From the NCBI RefSeq assembly GCF_004010195.1, contig NC_057718.1, positions 46,435,236 to 46,499,235 of the forward strand: a DNA stretch of 64,000 bases. The letters are read 5' to 3'. Made by a program: the position numbers and the translations under genes. The stretch is from Chiloscyllium plagiosum (lineage: Eukaryota). Below the pieces are notes generated by a model, which saw only the letters and a list, made by a program, of their open reading frames with translations, ran no database searches and was not told where the DNA came from. This document shows positions 4,378 to 26,194 of this stretch, piece after piece. The number at the start of each line of letters is the position of its first letter. Position 1 is the first letter of the stretch.

Positions 4378-6892
4378 CTAAATTCACACATACAAAAAAA
4401 AATTAGTAAAAATGTTTTAAGAAATACTTCAGACAACTTATTTAATAGGTTTCTTTTTGATTCACTAAGCTTCAATGAGTAAGCTACCAACTTATTCATA
4501 CCATTAAACAAAATATAAATTTAATCCCGCATTAATGATCTTAAACATATCATGTGGAATAATCTAGGCTGTAACAGTCATAATGTTTACCACTGGAGAG
4601 AAGGCCAGTTCACAGGCCTTCTGAATCAAATCATTTACAAGTAGTATGCTGGGAAATCCTGCAGCTGCACACATAATTGTACATTTTAGTGGATTAGGGT
4701 GATAAGTTCTTCTCTTGCTGGACTTTTATCAACTTTCTCAACAAAGGGACAACATCACAAGTAACGTTTAACATATAATTTTGGATAAACCTAATTCTGT
4801 CAAGATACAATCTGAATATTTCAATAATTACCATTGAAATGTTTTTGCAATAATGCACAAGGATCTTAGAATGGACAGGTGCCACTTGGCCCATCGGTGT
4901 CTGTGCTGGCCACCTGAAGAAGCAATTCATGAGGTGACACCATGCCCACCCAACTCTCCTTTCCATAGTAGCCAGCAAATTTAATTCTTTTAGAGGATGT
5001 GTTGTGTCCACTACAATCTATTGAAGGAGATTCTCAGTAACATTTCAAAGAATCCACGATGTATCTTTATGCAAATTTAAATCATTTATATATGAAATAC
5101 AAGTGCAAGCAATCTGCTTACTTTAATTCTGTTAATGTATCTAAAATATTTTGTTCTATAAAGCCTATTATTATCTGCTTCGCGAAGGTACTAAAATCAT
5201 ATGAGCATCTGCACAAGTAGTGGCAGCCCACATGAACGTCTAGGGGCTATTATCATGTTCAATTGATTGTGTTTACTGTGCCAGATTGGAATGCAGGTAC
5301 AAACTGGCAGCCTTTACTTAATACTCCTCTAAGTGCTTGAATTGTAATGATTTAATTACTACTTTAAACCCAAGTGTGCATCACAGTTTCCAGCATATCA
5401 AACAGCGCCTTTATTACAAGGTTTTGCTAAAACTAAAAGATGTCATTCCAAATGTCCAGGTCCTCATGAGCAGAGTGCTTATAATATTTGGTAGTTTTAT
5501 CACAGGAGACACCAGTTTCCATTTTTTTTAAGCTTTCAGTTATTCCTTCGAAGCCTGTCTCTTCATTCCTCTTGAAGAGCAGCTTGTATGAGGCAAGACA
5601 AACATTTTACTGCAGATCATTCAAGATCTCCTCCGCCAGACAATAACTAAAGAAAATGGACTGGATTCTATTGGAAAAGTAATAGCTTATTAATGATGCC
5701 CACCATTATTAACGCACAAATCAACTGATGGACTCAGGGGATTAAGAGGTACAGCAAATCTCCAGAATTTGCTAATTAATTACATCACTCCACTGTTTGC
5801 TTTACACAAACAGTATCTTACAAATTTAAAAAAAGGATATCGAGTGTAAGATTTGCAAATTAAATACTTACAGAATTTGCTACAGAAAGTGAAGTCTAAC
5901 AATTAAGAATAAGCATCTATTTAACAAGTGGTCGTTATTAATGTAACCAATCAACCTCTGGCTCAAAATCTGAACAATTTAAATATTCAAGTATCAGTTC
6001 TTCAGGCAGCAAATTGTTCAGTATTTTAGAATGGCTTTTTTAAAAAAATATTTCCTTACTCCTCTTCTCTCTGTCTCCTTTCTCTTTACCTTAATCAAAT
6101 CTGTTTCCGACCTCTTTATTTCTCTTCCTGTACCCAAGTTGATTCTAATTTGCTGTCCTTCTCCAACGTATCCTTTTCAGTCTTTCAATCAAAATTAGAT
6201 TTTGGATTGGATCCATTGTCAATCCTGCCAATCAATGAGGTCTTGGCTGACTCCCTTACCTTTGTCACTCCATTATCAACTCGCACTTGCAACGAGTTAC
6301 TTTGCACAACATTTTTAAACTGCAAGATTCTGAAAAAAAGGATTTGTAATGAACAGGGTCACCTTGAGTAGGCCTACTCCAGCAAATTGCAGGCTCCAAA
6401 TGCTCCGTTATACAAGCTAATGCTATCGCTAACACTAACATTAATCTCCCTCCAGTACAGAGAGGATGTTACCATGAATTGTGTTGTCTAACACATTTGA
6501 ACGCAACAGACTAGAAAAGTAACATTCAGCTCTGGAGTATTTTAGTAATTGAACGTTGAATGAGAGTAGAATTCGAATCTGCATTTTGTGAATGGTGTTT
6601 TGTTACTCTACCAACAGAGTTGCAAATTGTTGAACTCACAGTTTTATTGAGTAATATGGCCAGAGAATGAGAAATAGCACTGCAGAAACATCTTGTAGAC
6701 ACTTCTGTCAAGTGGATATTGATCAATATACTTCGGTATTTGAGGACATCTACATAACCTAAAAATCAGATCATTAATTGCAAAGCAATAAAGTTTACTT
6801 TCCACTTCTGTTTCACATACTGGATGTAATAGAATTTCAGGAAAAGTGCTTTTGGAGGTCACTAAGTTTGCAAAAGTTGTTAAAATTATTGC

Positions 6893-7099
6893 TGAAAATA
6901 TGTTGCTGGAAAAGCGCAGCAGGTCAGGCAGCATCCAAGGAACAGGAGAATCGACGTTTCGGGCATAAGCCCTTCTTCAGGAAGCGCTTATGCCCGAAAC
7001 GTCGATTCTCCTGTTCCTTGGATGCTGCCTGACCTGCTGCGCTTTTCCAGCAACACATTTTCAGCTCTGATCTCCAGCATCTGCAGCCCTCACTTTCTC
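6893..7099. mobile_element. Penelope-derived fold-back element (family A), 80-bp inverted arms, 16-bp TSD
   Basis: Arms 6891-6970 and 6986-7065 with 1 mismatch. TSD TTGTTAAAATTATTGC at 6877-6892 and 7100-7115. Arm sequence matches the termini of the GIY-YIG-bearing copies at 9125 and 58260. Confidence 0.85.
6950..6982 (-). ncRNA. Minimal type-I hammerhead ribozyme motif (PLE family A)
   Basis: Minus strand reads CUGAAGA-A-GGGC-uuau-GCCC-GAAA-CG-UC. Core and stem II are intact, helix III is the palindrome ACGU, stem I is weak. Confidence 0.65.
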
Positions 7100-7383
7100 T
7101 TGTTAAAATTATTGCATATATTTAAGAAAAGATTCGAAACAGACCTTTCTAGGCCATCTGCAAACCTGCTGCAAGGGACAGAATTTAGACCAGCTAGATT
7201 CTACTTAGCATTTTAATCGTACACAGATATTTATAAATGACAAAAGATTTAATGAGCCTTCGGTGTTAAAAGTTCATTGGAACAACTAATAAATGTGTGT
7301 CTATGCATTTGGAGATGGTATGCTTATGTTAATAAGGTAGTATTTAAGCAGATTATGTGAACTCCCCAAGGTGGCTCATTCAT

Positions 7384-12639: not shown

Positions 12640-13985
12640 AACAAAATCAGGGATTGCTGGAAAAACCCAGCTGGTCTGAGCGCATTGGTGGAGATGACTA
12701 AGTGATCACTGCAGATGCTGGAGATCAAAGTCGAGTGTGCAGTGCTGGAAAAGCACAGCAGCATCCAAGGACCAGGGGGAAAAAAAAAAAAATCGACATT
12801 TCCTGATGAAGGGCTTCTGCTTCTCAGATGCTGCCTGACCTGCTGTGCTTTCCCAGCAGCACTCTCTTGACCCAGCATCTGTGGAGGAAGCAGAGTTAAC
12901 GTTTCATTCTAGTAACCCTTCCTCAGAACTGATGGTAGCTAGGAAAGGTTGGTATGTACAGTATATGGAGGCAGTGGGGGCATAGTAAACAACGGATGGA
13001 GATAGAGTCCAGATGGAAAGAAACAATTGTCAGCCTGAGGAAATCATTAGCAACTAATGGGTAACATTAGTGGCTGACTTTGGGTTGTTTGTAGTAGCAA
13101 CCCATGTGATAGTAAGTTGTATGGGGTTAGAGTAGGAGATGCTGGTGGACATAGGGGAAGTGAGGACCAGGGGGACCCTATCGGTCTTGTTGAAGGGAAG
13201 AGGGGGTGGTGAGGACCGAGGTGTGGAGGCTGGGTCAGGCATGGCTGGAGGGCCTGTCAATCATGGTGAATGGGAATTATCAGTTGATGAAGGTGGTGGA
13301 AATTTCACAGGCCCCCTTGTCAAAAGTAGCATCATTGGAACAGTGGCAATGGAGAGCGAGAAACTGGGAGAACGGAATAGGGTCTTTAGAAGAAGCAGGG
13401 TGTGGAGAGGCATAGTCGAGGTAACTGTGGGAGTCGGTGCGTTTGTAGTGGTTATTGGTGGCCAGCCTATCCCCAGAAATGGAAACAGATGTCGAGGAAG
13501 AGAGTGGAGGAGTCAGCGGTGGACCGTGTGAAGATGAGAGCGGGGTAGAAATTGCAAGTGAAATTGATAAACTTTCCCAATTCAGGATGAGAGGGGGAGG
13601 CTACAGTAGGACCAGAAGAAGGAATGTTTAACATTCCTCAAAAGGGACAGACATAACTGAGGCCCACGTATATAATACCCATACACCCATGACCATACCT
13701 TTGGTGTGAAGAAAGTGAGAAGAGTAAGAGGAGAAATTGTTCAGGGAGAGGACGAGCTCAGGCAGGTGGAGAAGGATGGTGGTGGATGGGGATAGTTCAG
13801 GCCTTTTTTCCAGGAGGAAACTGTGAGGCCTGAGACCATCCTGATTGGGGTTGGACATGTAAAGGGATTGCACATGCATGGTGAAGAGAAGGTAGCTAGT
13901 GCCCGTGAATCGGAAACTCTGAAACTGATGTGAAGTATCAAAAGAATCACATTTGAGAGTGGAAAGGGACCAGACGAGAGGAGAA
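12640..13985 (-). mobile_element. Penelope-like element (family B) with RT remnants; a family-A mini element is nested at ~12694-12874
   Basis: Remnants LVLSLNNFSSYSSHFLHTKGMVMG and DRVPLVLT resemble PLE RT. Terminal hammerhead-like motif AGUU-CUGAGGA...GAAACGUU-AACU at ~12895-12931 on the minus strand, with stem II decayed. Confidence 0.75.
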
Positions 13986-20444: not shown

Positions 20445-20660
20445 AAAAACTGCGAATGCTGTAAATCAGAAACAAAAACAGAAGTTGCTGGAAAAGCTCA
20501 GCAGGTCAGGCAGCATCTGTAAAGGGAAATTAAGAGTATACATTTCAGGTCCAGTGACCCTTCTGAGGGAGAGTCACCTGACCCAAAACATTAACTCTGA
20601 TTTCTCTTCACAGATGCTGTCAGGCCTGCTGAGCTTTTCCAGCAACTTCTGTTTTGATCT
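20445..20660. mobile_element. Penelope-derived fold-back element (family B)
   Basis: Inverted arms CAAAAACAGAAGTTGCTGGAAAAGCTCAGCAGG and CCTGCTGAGCTTTTCCAGCAACTTCTGTTTTG. Hammerhead cores are truncated. Confidence 0.75.
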
Positions 20661-21409
20661 TGAAAATATGTTGGTAAAGCCACTATTTCAGAGATAAGTG
20701 GTCTCCAGTGACCAACATATCAAACTTGTGCCCTGCTTGACTCATGCTGGTCTTAACCGTAAACTTTTCCAGTTTACTTCAATTGCCTTCCTATTCTTTC
20801 AGCATTTCCACTGAAAGGAAAATTCTCCATAACGATTAATTAAAACCTTTCATTTTCAAAACTCATTCCATGCAATTTACTTAACTCACAGCCGCATCAA
20901 GAACCAATTAGAATGGCTGGAACCAAGCAATGGGAACACTATATTGGCCTCTATGACTGATCAGTGCCCTTTGTGGAATAGGGGGAACAAATATGCCGAG
21001 TGGGCCCTCATGGCAGAACGGCAATGTCCCTACATCTGAGCCAGAAGACCCAGGCTTGGAGTCCCACTTGACCCGGAGATTTTTCATTTCAGTAATACGA
21101 ACAAGGGCAAGACTTATACAGTTACTGGTAGAGCCCTATTGAATGCTGTTGAACAGACAGACCTAGGTACATAGTTCTTTAAAAGTTACATCATAGGTAT
21201 AGAAGCTGGTAAAGGCAGCCTTTCGACGTTTGCCTTCATTGCTCAGACCATTGAGTATAGGAGTTGGGACATCATTTTGCGGTTAGAGAGGACATTGGTG
21301 AGGCCACCTTTGGAGTACCGTATACTGTACTGGCTCAAAGTTTGTGCGAAGATTTGTAGCTCGGGTGCTCATTGTTGTGGTTCTGTCCGCCGAGCTGGAA
21401 GTTTTTGTT

Positions 21410-21449
21410 GCAAACGTTTCGTCCCCTGGCTAGGCGACATCATCAGTGC
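21410..21449 (-). ncRNA. Minimal type-I hammerhead ribozyme motif (PLE family D), sense to the pre-mRNA
   Basis: GCA-CUGAUGA-U-GUC-g-CCU-agcc-AGG-g-GAC-GAAA-CG-UU-UGC. Confidence 0.78.
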
Positions 21450-21756
21450 TTGGGAGCCTCCTGCGAAGCGCTTCTTTTATGATAGTAGTGTTATCATACT
21501 ATCATATGACATACTATGATAGTAGTGTTATCATACTATGACACTACTATCATAGGACAAGTCAGACAGAGAACAGCCAGGGAATTCCTAGAGGCATGGC
21601 ATTCATCCACAAACTCCATCAACAAACACATCGACCTGGACCCAATATACCAACCACTACAGCGGACAGCTGAAACTGACAACCGGAAGCGGCAGGGACA
21701 GACCACTATAAACACCGGAGGAAACATCAAAGAAGCGCTTCGCAGGAGGCTCCCAA

Positions 21757-21796
21757 GCACTGATGATGTCGCCTAGCCAGGGGACGAAACGTTTGC
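21757..21796 (+). ncRNA. Minimal type-I hammerhead ribozyme motif (PLE family D)
   Basis: Identical to 21410-21449 on the opposite strand. CTGATGA at 21760-21766, GAAA at 21786-21789. Confidence 0.78.
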
Positions 21797-23489
21797 AACA
21801 AAAACTTCCAGCTCGGCGAACAGAACCACAACACTGTACTGGCTGCCCTGCTACAAGAAGGATATTATTATGTTGGAGAGGGTGCAGAAAACATTTACAA
21901 AGATGTTGTTATCAGGAATGGAGGGTTGAAGTTTATAAGGAAGGCTGGATAGGCTGGGACATTTTTCACTGGAGCATAGGAGGTTGAGAATTGACCTTTT
22001 TAGGGATTTATAAAACCATAAAAGGACATAGATAAGGTGAATAGCAAAGATCGTTTCTGTTGGCACAGGGGAGTTCAAAAGTATGGGGCATTTTTTAAGG
22101 TGAGAGGAGAAAGATTAAAAGGGGATCTGAAGGGTAATTTATTTTTAAAAAAAGAGGCTGGTTCAGATGTGGAATGAAATGTTAGAGGAACTGATAGATC
22201 CTGGTACAGTTACAACATTTAAAAGACATTTGGACAGGTAGGTGAATGGTTTAGAAGGAAGTGGGCCAAACACGGCAGATAGGACCAGTTTAGTTTGGGA
22301 AATTTGGTCACCATGGACGAAGGATCTGTTTCCATGTTGTACGGCACTAGGAGGTATGTCATAAACATGTCTATGCCAATTGATAGGGAAAACTCAGTAA
22401 ATTCGCCAATGTACATTCTCCCCCTCTCCATTGTTGGTCTGCAATGTCCTTCAAATGTAAATTACTCCATAACACCATAAAAGATAGGAGTGGAAATTAG
22501 GCCATTTGGCCCATCAAGTCTGCTCCCCCATTCAATCATGGCTGATGGGGTTGACAAACCTATATTCCTACTTTCTCCCTGTAACCTTTAATCTCCTTGG
22601 CAATCAAGAACTTGTATCTGTTTTAAATATCCTCAATGACCTGACCTCCACAGCCTTTTGTAGCAATGAATTCCACAGATTCAATACTCTCTGGCTAAAA
22701 AAAAAAATCTGCTTATCGCCATTCTAATGGGTCTTCCCTTTACTATTCCCAATGTCCACACTGTCCAGTATTCGAAGTTTCAATCAGATCCCCCCTACAT
22801 CCGTCTAAACAACGTGCATCGTCCTAGAGTCTTCAAATGTTCCTTCTACGTGAACCCATTCATTCCTGGGATCATTCTCGTGAACCGCCTCTGGACCTGC
22901 TCCAGGGCCAGTAGATCCTTCTTGGAGGTATGGGGCCCAAAACTGCTCAGAATACTCTAAATGTGGTCTGACCAGAGCCTTATAAAGCCTCAGAAATTCA
23001 TCCCTGCTTTTATATTATAGTCCTCTTGAGATAAATGATAATATTGTATTTGCCTTTCGAACCACAGACTCAATGTGCAGTTTACCTCAAGAGAAACCTC
23101 ACTCTGACTTCCAAGTCCCTTTGCACTCCAGATTTCTACATTTTCTCACCATTAGAAAACAATCCATGCCTCGATTCTTCCTACCAAAGTGCATGACCTC
23201 ACACTTCCTCACATTGCATTTTATCTGTCACTTCTTACCCCATTCTCCTAACCTTTCTAAATCCTTCTGCAGCCTCCTTGCCTTCTCAATACTACTAGCC
23301 CTTCTCCCTAGCTTGGCATTATCTGCAGACTTAGCCAGAATGCCCTCAATTCCTTCATCTAGATCATTAATGTATAAAGTGAAAAGTTGTGGCCCCCAAC
23401 ACTGACCCTTGTGGAACATCACCAGCTTCCATCCTGAGAAGGACCCTTTTATCCCCACTCTCTGCCTTCTGCCAGACAGCCAAACTTCT

Positions 23490-23797
23490 GTTGTGGTTTT
23501 GTTCGCCGAGCTGGGAATTTGTGTTGCAGACATTTCGTCCCATGTCTAGGTGACATCCTCAGTGCTTGGGCGCCTCCTGTGAAGCGCTTCTTTGATGTTT
23601 CCTCTGGCATTTGTACAGGTTTGAATCTGCCGCTCCGGTTTCCGGAGGAAACATCACAGAAGCGCTTCACAGGAGGCTCCCAAGCAGTGAGGATGTCACC
23701 TAGACAGGGGACGAAATGTCTGCAACACAAATTCTCAGCTCGGCGAACAGAACCACAACAACGAGCACTCGAGCTACAAATCTTCTCACAAACTTTG
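23490..23797. mobile_element. Penelope-derived fold-back element (family D), 12-bp TSD
   Basis: Inverted arms ~23489-23606 and ~23642-23760, plus a 37-nt tail. TSD AGCCAAACTTCT at 23478-23489 and 23798-23809. Confidence 0.9.
23525..23566 (-). ncRNA. Minimal type-I hammerhead ribozyme motif (PLE family D), sense to the pre-mRNA
   Basis: GCA-CUGAGGA-U-GUC...GAC-GAAA-UG-UC-UGC with a GUC cleavage triplet. The plus-strand partner (~23684-23723) has C3 mutated to G. Confidence 0.7.
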
Positions 23798-26194
23798 AGC
23801 CAAACTTCTATCCATGCTAGTATCTTGCTTCTAACATCTTGGGCCCTTATCTTTCTCAGCAGCCTACTGTGCAGCACCTTATCAAAGGCCTTGTGCAAGT
23901 CCAGATAGATAACATCCATTGGTTCTCCTTGGTGTAACCTGCTCATTACCTCCTCAAAGAATTCTAGCAGATTGGTCAGGCATGACCTCCCCTTGATGAA
24001 ACCATGCTGACTTTGCCCTATTTTACCATGCACCTCTAAGTATTCAGAAATCTCATCCTTCACAATGGACTCCACAATCTTACTAATGACTGAGGTCAGG
24101 CTAATCAGCCTGCAATTTCTTGTCTTTTGCCTGACTCCTTTCTTAAACGGGAGTTACATTAATGATTTTCCAGTTTTCTGGGACCCTCCCTGATTCCAGT
24201 GATTCCTGAAAGACCACTAACATCTCCATTATCTCTTCAGCTATCTCCTTCAGAACTCAAGGGTGTAGCCCATCTGGTTCAGGTGATCTATCCACTTTCA
24301 GACTTTTCAGTTTTTCTAGCACCTTCTCCTTGGTGATGGTCACCATATTCATCTCTGCGCCTCCAACTCTCTTGAAGTTTTAGGATATTACTCATGTCTT
24401 CCACCGTGAAGACTGATACAAAGTACTTATTCAGTTCCTCAGCCATTTCCCTGTTCTCCATTGCGACTTCTCCAGTATCATTTTCCAGCGGCTCAATGTC
24501 CTTTGTATATTTAAAGAAACTCTTGTAACCTTTCCTAATATTACTGTCATATTTAATCTTCTCCCTCCTTATTTCCTCCTTTGTTGTCCTCTGTTGCTCT
24601 TTCTAGTCTTCCCAATCCTCTGGTTTCCCACTGCCCTTCGCCATATTATATGCTTATTTTTGGCTTTAATGCTGTCCCTGACTTCCCTGGTTAGCCATGG
24701 TTGACTCATCCTCCCTTTCGATTGCTTCCTTCTCCTCGGGATGAATTTTTGCAATGTCGCCCGAATTACTCTCAAAAACTCCTGCCATTGCTGTTCCACC
24801 GTCTTTCCTTCTAGGCTCCTCTCCCAGTCAATTCTGGTCAGCTCCTCCCTCATGCCTCTGTAATTGCCTTTATTCAACTGTAATACTGTTATATCAGATT
24901 CCAGCTTCTCCCTCTCAAATTGCAGAGTAAATTCTTTCACATTATGGTCACTGCTTCCTAAGGGTTCCTTCACCTTAAGCTCTCATTAAGTCTGCTTCAT
25001 TGCACAACACTAAATCTAGAATTGCCCATTTCCTAGTGGGCTCTGCTACAAGCTGCACCAATATCGTGTAGACTTTTCTTGCAATCCACTATCAACCTGA
25101 TTTTCCCAGTACACCCACATGTTGAAATACTCAACTGGAAAACATGGGAGACTTACTGGTGGTGGTTAATATATTTTAAAAATACTACGGCTGATTTGAT
25201 AGGGAAAACGTTCAGTTGGGTGAACTTTTGGATATAATAGTAAAAAAAAGATTTTAAAATAATCTCCATTGTTAACAATCACCAGGCAGATACATGAAAA
25301 CAAGCTTTTTTTTTAAACAAACAAATATCAGTGCATAGATGATGCCCATACTGTTTGTGGAGATGAGGAAGAAATGTTGATAAAATTGGATTTTAAATGT
25401 AACAGAGAATGCCAAAGTGGAGTGCAGTGAAACCTGGACCTTAACAATCTGCATTTGTGCAGCAGCATTAACTTAAGGCCCAAGATGCTTCAATCCATAT
25501 AATTTAGATTGCAAACAGAAGGATTATAGTTACATCACTAGGCTATTGCATAATTAACCTTGTAACTATTTAAGAGAGAGGAGGGTCAACTGTGGAACAG
25601 CTCATGTTAATCTTCTTATATGGACAACTACCATTCAATGCTTATCAAAATAAACTAAATCCTTTTTTAAGTTATAATCACAAGTCATTTTCAAAATGCA
25701 GCAAAACCTCACAGTTGAATAAACTTACTTGTACATATATTAGATCCAATGTCCGAACCAAATACCAGTAACATGTAACTGCCCCAGGGGTCAACCATCT
25801 GCTGCCACCCAGTATTCTGTCAGACAGCTTTACTGCACTGGTGTTCAGAGTGAAAAGGCACAGTCAGAATAAAGATGTGCAATGACTAAAGGGAAAAGCT
25901 CCACTAGAGAAGAATTGATTATGTTAATTCAGGGACAAGTTTAAGGAAGATTGCCAACTAGGACATAACACCATTACATATCAAGGCAGATAAAGAACAA
26001 TGGGAACAATAAAGACAGATAAAATGACAACAAAGCTTATAAATAGTTGCATTTAGCCTAGTAGCGCCTTTGTGAAAATATTTGACTGTGATATTAACAC
26101 TAAACCTGCCAATGCGCTTAGCGCGATTGGGAGCTAAGTATTCATGTTGTAAAATGTTTAGAAAGGACAAGGACATTAAACTTTAATAAAATGA

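Follow-up and report, generated by a model that had tools for sequence, protein, structure and literature searches.

Within the 64,000 nucleotides of Chiloscyllium plagiosum DNA analyzed here (the window), the stretch 21336-21832 carries the same hammerhead motif on both strands, in inverted arms around the end of a GIY-YIG reading frame. The question raised by this locus is how such an arrangement was formed, and whether it is the youngest insertion and the best candidate for a functional ribozyme, as an earlier note on this DNA had proposed. We consider the locus to be a 5'-truncated, non-autonomous, dead-on-arrival insertion of a Penelope/Poseidon-type EN+ Penelope-like element (PLE), which would have originated from two nicks and whose ribozyme would be silent at this position, and we assign this reading a probability of about 0.85. 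Opposite-strand hammerhead pairs and the dimer-type ribozyme have been published before, as have the architecture and the tail, and the locus itself is of minor weight. The value of the copy is that of a nearly unmutated specimen: its one-sided tail, the fixed position of both termini, the stagger of 12 bp and the fold-back filler are relevant to the late steps of PLE integration, which have yet to be validated.

Anatomy and target site of the insertion

The insertion, its host repeat and two further elements of the window consist of the following features.

21175-21929, plus strand: decayed, high-copy host repeat, with a continuous frame across the empty site, both flanks showing paralog depth and loose ends
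21324-21335, plus strand: left target site duplication (TSD), 12 bp, ACTGTACTGGCT, with an exact copy at 21833-21844
21336-21373, minus strand: PLE tail, 38 bp, single-copy, outside the left arm, encoding about residues 23-35 of the element ORF
21374-21477, minus strand: inverted 5'-truncated pLTR arm, 104 bp, holding the private change 21387 C
21410-21449, minus strand: minimal type I hammerhead, C3 at 21446, predicted cut 21413/21412, mirror of the plus-strand motif
21478-21540, no strand assigned: junction filler, 63 bp, with two direct copies of an 18-mer and shorter spacer pieces of the same sequence
21541-21776, plus strand: 3' end of the RT+GIY-YIG ORF, comprising the endonuclease end (conserved Glu, Asn) and a C-terminal extension
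21729-21832, plus strand: direct pLTR arm, 104 bp, whose end is the inner start site of reverse transcription
21757-21796, plus strand: minimal type I hammerhead, C3 at 21760, extra U at 21767, predicted cut 21793/21794
21833-21844, plus strand: right TSD, 12 bp, exact repeat of 21324-21335
23490-23797, no strand assigned: sister copy, oppositely oriented, sharing both termini and flanked by a 12-bp TSD at 23478-23489 and 23798-23809
6893-7099: inverted element from another hammerhead family, arms of 78 bp with one mismatch, 36-bp tail

The insertion comprises 497 bp and is flanked by an exact 12-bp TSD. In a chance control, a 12-mer was common to 4 of 20,000 random pairs of 41-nt windows. When the insert and one TSD copy are excised, both flank frames fuse into a single open frame, and therefore the 12-bp repeat is a true target duplication. 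The interrupted repeat is presumably the RT end of a CR1-type LINE, and comparison of this flank repeat with the Atlas returned unnamed clusters only. When the target sites of the insertion and of the sister copy are oriented by their tails, 10 of 17 letters agree around the TSD (AT/A......TGGCT/G.C, a span picked afterwards) and 13 of 32 agree overall. With n = 2, these shared letters may reflect a preference of the endonuclease for certain targets. Primer-template homology at the tail was also considered: both copies have TGGCT beside the tail, yet the family ORF goes on with Asn-Thr, which is unfit for a 5-nt RNA match, and therefore such homology was rejected beyond one base.

The two arms differ by a single mismatch in 104 bp (21387 C versus 21819). 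Since the family letter at 21387 is T in more than 99% of the read depth in all four sequencing runs, the C of the left arm is private. The inverted arms with one mismatch and the perfect 12-bp TSD were thus described correctly in the earlier note, and the arm length is 104 bp rather than the 105 bp given there. The terminal layout likewise stands as far as the inversion is concerned, but the arms are not flush: the 38-bp tail lies outside the left arm and has no counterpart in the right arm. In this copy the tail carries a TGA (21371) at a position where the sister copy and the family protein P0010 have Arg. Read from 5' to 3', each strand passes from the TSD directly into cDNA-sense sequence, whose start is one or the other of two fixed sites separated by 38 nt. 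Only 292 bp of the body remain, and upstream of 21541 the family sequence is ordinary ORF in the loose ends of contigs in four of four runs. The 18-mer of the filler corresponds to the 5' end of the body in reverse complement. The tail, the filler and the sister copy had gone unmentioned in the earlier note. MicroRNA-like Rfam matches on the filler were weak, far under the gathering scores, and were rejected.

Family identity and formation of the inverted arms

No stop interrupts the 78 codons of the frame 21540-21773, and the ORF piece of the insertion aligns at 83% identity to residues 386-462, the C-terminus, of P0002, a shark protein with an RT domain. With residues 1-60 of the body frame as the query, 8 of 22 candidate proteins matched at E ≤ 0.001. 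Seven of these eight were shark proteins (Chiloscyllium punctatum or Hemiscyllium ocellatum) with 78-87% identity, and these matches to RT+EN proteins support the Penelope-like identity. P0002 contains an RT domain (Pfam RVT_1, E = 3.3e-6) followed by an endonuclease region which grouped with the Atlas GIY-YIG clusters at 0.95; a relative, P0018, scored above the Pfam GIY-YIG cut-off, and P0003 and P0007 scored below it. The endonuclease piece of the insertion keeps the invariant Glu and the near-invariant Asn, and starts past the two name-giving GIY-YIG motifs. The GIY-YIG C-terminal frame is uninterrupted, as had been described, but the copy retains no more than the end of the domain, and none of three window frames, among them this 78-codon end and the flank repeat, had a Pfam match. 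In the sister copy, the arm-plus-tail frame matches the N-terminus of the RT protein P0010 (one of one candidate, 89%), which has RVT_1 at E = 3.9e-11 and an ORF start at the same place as in the shark copies. Two proteins of Chiloscyllium punctatum, P0005 (5'-nucleotidase domain protein 1 X3) and P0008 (MAP3K7 X3), end in the endonuclease C-terminus of the family; exonisation or a gene-model artefact is possible for these endings.

The RT-EN linker is 73-75 aa long and contains CxxC in none of the seven parsable proteins (12 considered). A Zn-finger-like CxxC in this linker is present in Neptune and Nematis, according to passages of PMC8557442. By domain order and the CxxC-free linker, the family points to Penelope/Poseidon rather than to Neptune/Nematis. 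The RT with C-terminal GIY-YIG in a single ORF that defines an EN+ PLE is present in the family and not in the truncated copy itself. The copy has the EN+ PLE traits of a pLTR with an adjacent inverted 5'-truncated copy, a 38-bp tail with early codons and a short TSD. A tblastn search within the window found two truncated copies and no full-length element.

In passages of Craig et al. 2021 (PMC8557442) and Arkhipova et al. 2013 (PMC3846280), EN+ PLEs typically show an inverted 5'-truncated copy, a tail of 30-40 bp at one end and short TSDs, and the agreement of our insertion with this published layout supports the proposed reading. The EN+ PLE insertion units described there are alike in the inverted copy beside the 5' end, the one-end tail and the short TSD, and also in a pLTR and tail that encode the first ORF codons and in insertion into another retroelement. 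However, the TSD is 12 bp in the shark copies versus 8-10 bp in the rotifer examples, and the 63-bp iterated fold-back filler and the 292-bp body set the insertion apart from the published units. For PAc, the Poseidon element of Anolis carolinensis, passages of Frangieh et al. 2024 (PMC11167929) describe a protein that cleaves and extends both strands, and two start sites that bound the tail. On the one hand, PAc and the shark family share an ORF that begins at the start of hammerhead stem II, two fixed termini bounding the tail, and an RT followed by a C-terminal GIY-YIG; the distance from the ORF start to the cut is 26 nt in PAc and 28 nt, from the A of the ATG, in the shark copy. On the other hand, the shark copy has its start sites at about nt 67 and 105 of the ORF, versus 111-118 nt in PAc, and the nicks of the shark copy are not in an ATT motif, unlike those of PAc. 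The comparison with PAc is one of published description.

In the formation that we propose, the RT-GIY-YIG protein of the element would have nicked both strands 12 nt apart, and each nicked 3' end would have primed reverse transcription at one of two internal start sites, yielding cDNAs of 142 nt and about 296 nt. The truncated cDNAs would have been joined head to head after several rounds of fold-back synthesis, and the 63-bp filler would be the record of this abortive synthesis during joining. In this case, the identity of the two hammerheads would go back to a common pLTR template of both arms, and not to selection on the pair. The anatomy is seen and the priming is what we infer from it, and we consider it reasonably probable that the arms are two separate reverse-transcription products of twin priming. 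A literature search for twin priming in Penelope-like elements returned no mechanism paper, as judged by title.

An alternative to priming at both nicks is fold-back, in which one cDNA or an antisense template primes itself; palindromes at inverted junctions led to this proposal for rotifer Penelope, in passages of PMC3846280, and such self-priming could have produced the inverted arm here as well. Fold-back synthesis did happen, as the filler is made up of the 5' end of the body copied by fold-back, and the arms of the sister copy meet, with no filler, at a short palindrome near 23641-23646. However, the sequence mirrored by the left arm is the body's far end, with about 190 nt skipped, and this arm is accompanied by 38 nt that are missing from the right arm. 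As the tail is missing from the right arm and is not obtainable by folding back the right-hand cDNA, the left arm is not its fold-back copy. Also, both termini are fixed sites common to the sister copy, whose tail ends at the same base as 21336-21373 and whose other arm end likewise matches. We therefore hold self-priming to be an unlikely source of the inverted arm.

An even smaller chance is left to a MITE-like or retrozyme-like non-autonomous unit, moving whole with the arms as its terminal inverted repeats, and we regard this as very improbable. The insertion is indeed short, TSD-flanked and inverted at its ends, and the family sequence stands at about 1e4-1e5 times the single-copy depth in four of four runs, a figure that is not a copy number. 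However, the ends are asymmetric by 38 bp, since the left arm begins 38 bp inside and is not flush with the TSD; the two window copies differ in internal break points and junctions, and the family contigs upstream of 21541 enter the ORF and not the filler. The non-LTR retrozymes (bioRxiv 10.64898/2026.07.22.740005), reported for one chondrichthyan, are likewise PLE-derived, hammerhead-bearing and non-autonomous. They are tandem same-strand repeats, whereas the shark copy occurs as one inverted unit, flanked by a TSD and retaining remnants of the ORF, and it has one motif per strand.

Hammerhead motifs and their predicted folding

The motifs on the two strands are letter-identical (C3 at 21760 on the plus strand and 21446 on the minus strand), and stem I (GCA/UGC), stem II (GUC/GAC and CCU/AGG) and the GUU triplet are all as they had been noted. 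A GUU triplet is cleaved more slowly than GUC. The claim of a complete hammerhead with an ACGU helix III has to be given up: helix III (A15.1-C-G-U16.1) consists of only two base pairs and has no loop, and the intramolecular helix III of a canonical hammerhead was not found. Therefore, the motif is minimal and offers no closure within one molecule. The minimal PLE hammerhead was defined by Cervera and De la Pena 2014 (PMC4209133), and we found the core CUGANGA...GAAA...UH, the extra nucleotide 9/10.1, G10.1-C11.1 and the palindromic 15.2-16.2 that characterize it, as in the metazoan PLE motifs in passages of that paper. A long helix II and a short helix I are also shared with those motifs; stem II has 6 bp with a G-G mismatch and stem I has 3 bp, versus 4-5 bp in the published helix I core. 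The same passages report opposite-strand hammerhead pairs 100-700 bp apart, which probably derive from truncated PLEs. In the 64 kb, Rfam gave no match at the gathering score, and none of the seven matches at E ≤ 10 was a hammerhead. A literature search for shark Penelope hammerhead ribozymes returned none, 'shark' occurring merely as a motif name, and the supplements of the cited papers may list some.

The motif overlaps the reading frames of the element. The stop codon TAG (21774-21776) falls at stem II/loop II, and the hammerhead also holds the ORF stop in four of five aligned homologs. The ATG of the next ORF is made of A9, the extra U and G10.1 (21766-21768), and the core 21766-21776 is thereby read twice, as the last codons and stop of one ORF and with the start codon of the next. 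The cut of a minimal PLE ribozyme would detach the start codon of the ORF.

Folding was computed as equilibrium secondary-structure thermodynamics, a scope without Mg2+, tertiary contacts, protein or kinetics. In terms of a ribozyme that cleaves in vivo, every core residue is intact in both arms, stems I and II are predicted at P 0.80-0.99 in the isolated motif, and GUU is a cleavable NUH triplet (in passages of PMC3138052). However, helix III cannot close intramolecularly, and in the isolated motif the core residues G5-G8 are predicted to pair with C15.2-U17 at P 0.75-0.89, so that the open-core fold lies 2.8 kcal/mol above the predicted fold and accounts for about 1% of the population. The cost of the open core is 5.9 kcal/mol with the whole body attached and 78.7 kcal/mol in the whole element on either strand. 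The antisense arm is transcribed before the ribozyme both ways, with C3 at nt 425 of 497 on the plus strand and nt 387 of 497 on the minus strand, and on the plus strand the arm duplex kept a mean pair probability of 0.97-0.99 across the four prefix lengths examined. Two monomers (-51.2) are favored over an enforced double hammerhead (-47.1), and the element holds one motif per strand, so a dimer has no same-strand partner inside the element.

It was stated earlier that transcription in either direction yields one ribozyme and its own antisense, and this is correct. The conclusion that this is the best candidate for a functional ribozyme is not supported by the predicted core lock, the order of the arms and the open-core penalty. 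Because the antisense arm comes first and the open core is costly, the locus is predicted to be a poor rather than the best candidate for activity in situ. Read-through RNA at the locus would, according to these predictions, form a 104-bp hairpin and stay uncleaved. A transcript initiating between the arms could cleave in trans or with protein, because the isolated motif is just a small step from the open core. The folding figures argue against cleavage from read-through RNA, and source copies of the family might still cleave.

In passages of PMC4209133, lone minimal hammerheads show no in vitro cleavage and dimers cleave at a low level, and in passages of PMC11167929 the PAc hammerhead requires protein for its cut, and insertion does not depend on this hammerhead. 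The core-locking alternative fold predicted for the shark motif is unlike the account in the passages of PMC4209133, which name no sharks. The predicted self-lock suggests why PLE hammerheads require protein or a partner. We consider that the ribozyme is probably off by default, the switch being a tandem partner or the element's protein. More tentatively, it is possible that symmetric twin priming with iterated fold-back joining goes together with a hammerhead that stays locked until a protein or tandem partner is present, and that the inverted stumps are dsRNA sources silencing the family. If this were true, the antisense arm always coming first would make the inverted stumps dsRNA sources rather than ribozymes. 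For a cleavage assay, no construct would be less suitable than an inverted copy with two perfect hammerheads.

Age of the insertion and other elements in the window

The arm divergence is 1/104 (0.9%), and 1/116 when the TSD is included. The flank contigs of organism A, apparently the same species, differ from the window at 11/1412 and 17/1545 positions in two runs, and those of two other sharks at 30/935 (organism C, 3.2%) and 58/1155 (organism B, 5.0%). These values were taken from the longest contigs, with the records over 23900-24212 and record 27 of organism B excluded as possible paralogs. One mismatch or fewer in 116 has P = 0.11 at the divergence of organism C and P = 0.018 at that of organism B, which speaks for a late insertion. 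Accordingly, the insertion is comparatively young, as its arm divergence is lower than the flank divergence to the two sharks. However, the claim that it is the youngest is not borne out, since 1/104 is not separable from the 7/118 of the sister copy (Fisher p = 0.07) or from the 1/78 of the equally clean element 6893-7099 (p = 1). Taken as a whole, the proposal of a youngest insertion with a ribozyme functional in vivo at 21336-21832 is in our judgement highly doubtful.

At the epaulette-shark mutation rate of 7e-10 per base per generation (in passages of PMC10587355), 1/104 corresponds to 6.9 million generations with a Poisson range of 0.17-38 million. In a shark, arms that are almost identical are no sign of an insertion that is recent in terms of years. 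The lone arm mismatch could be an RT error, in which case the insertion would be younger, and the arms could have been homogenised, in which case it would be older. The reads came from 4 of 24 sequencing runs, with X9 read to about 86% and X14 to about 85%. Among the joints listed for these four runs, which are dominated by paralogs, none bridges either junction or the empty site. Record 27 of organism B is a 204-nt contig at single-copy depth with 6 differences over 21831-21966, and its other 69 letters leave the element; this hints at an empty site, the alternative being a paralog. A recently active family, as had been suggested, is plausible.

The sister copy has 7 mismatches in its 118-bp arms. 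Its plus-strand motif carries C3G where the family has C in at least 97% of the read depth, and its minus-strand motif keeps the core with a GUC triplet. Its host is an RT-encoding repeat (Pfam RVT_1, E = 1.8e-4, below the cut-off). The element 6893-7099 has an exact 16-bp TSD (6877-6892 and 7100-7115) and a full core in the minus-strand arm only. A loose hammerhead-core pattern had 12 matches in the window, for example at 12926, 17259, 17795 and 58386. The window also contains 43 inverted pairs of at least 30 bp within 3 kb, several of which look like fold-back elements of other families, such as 20475-20655, which has very high read depth in four of four runs.
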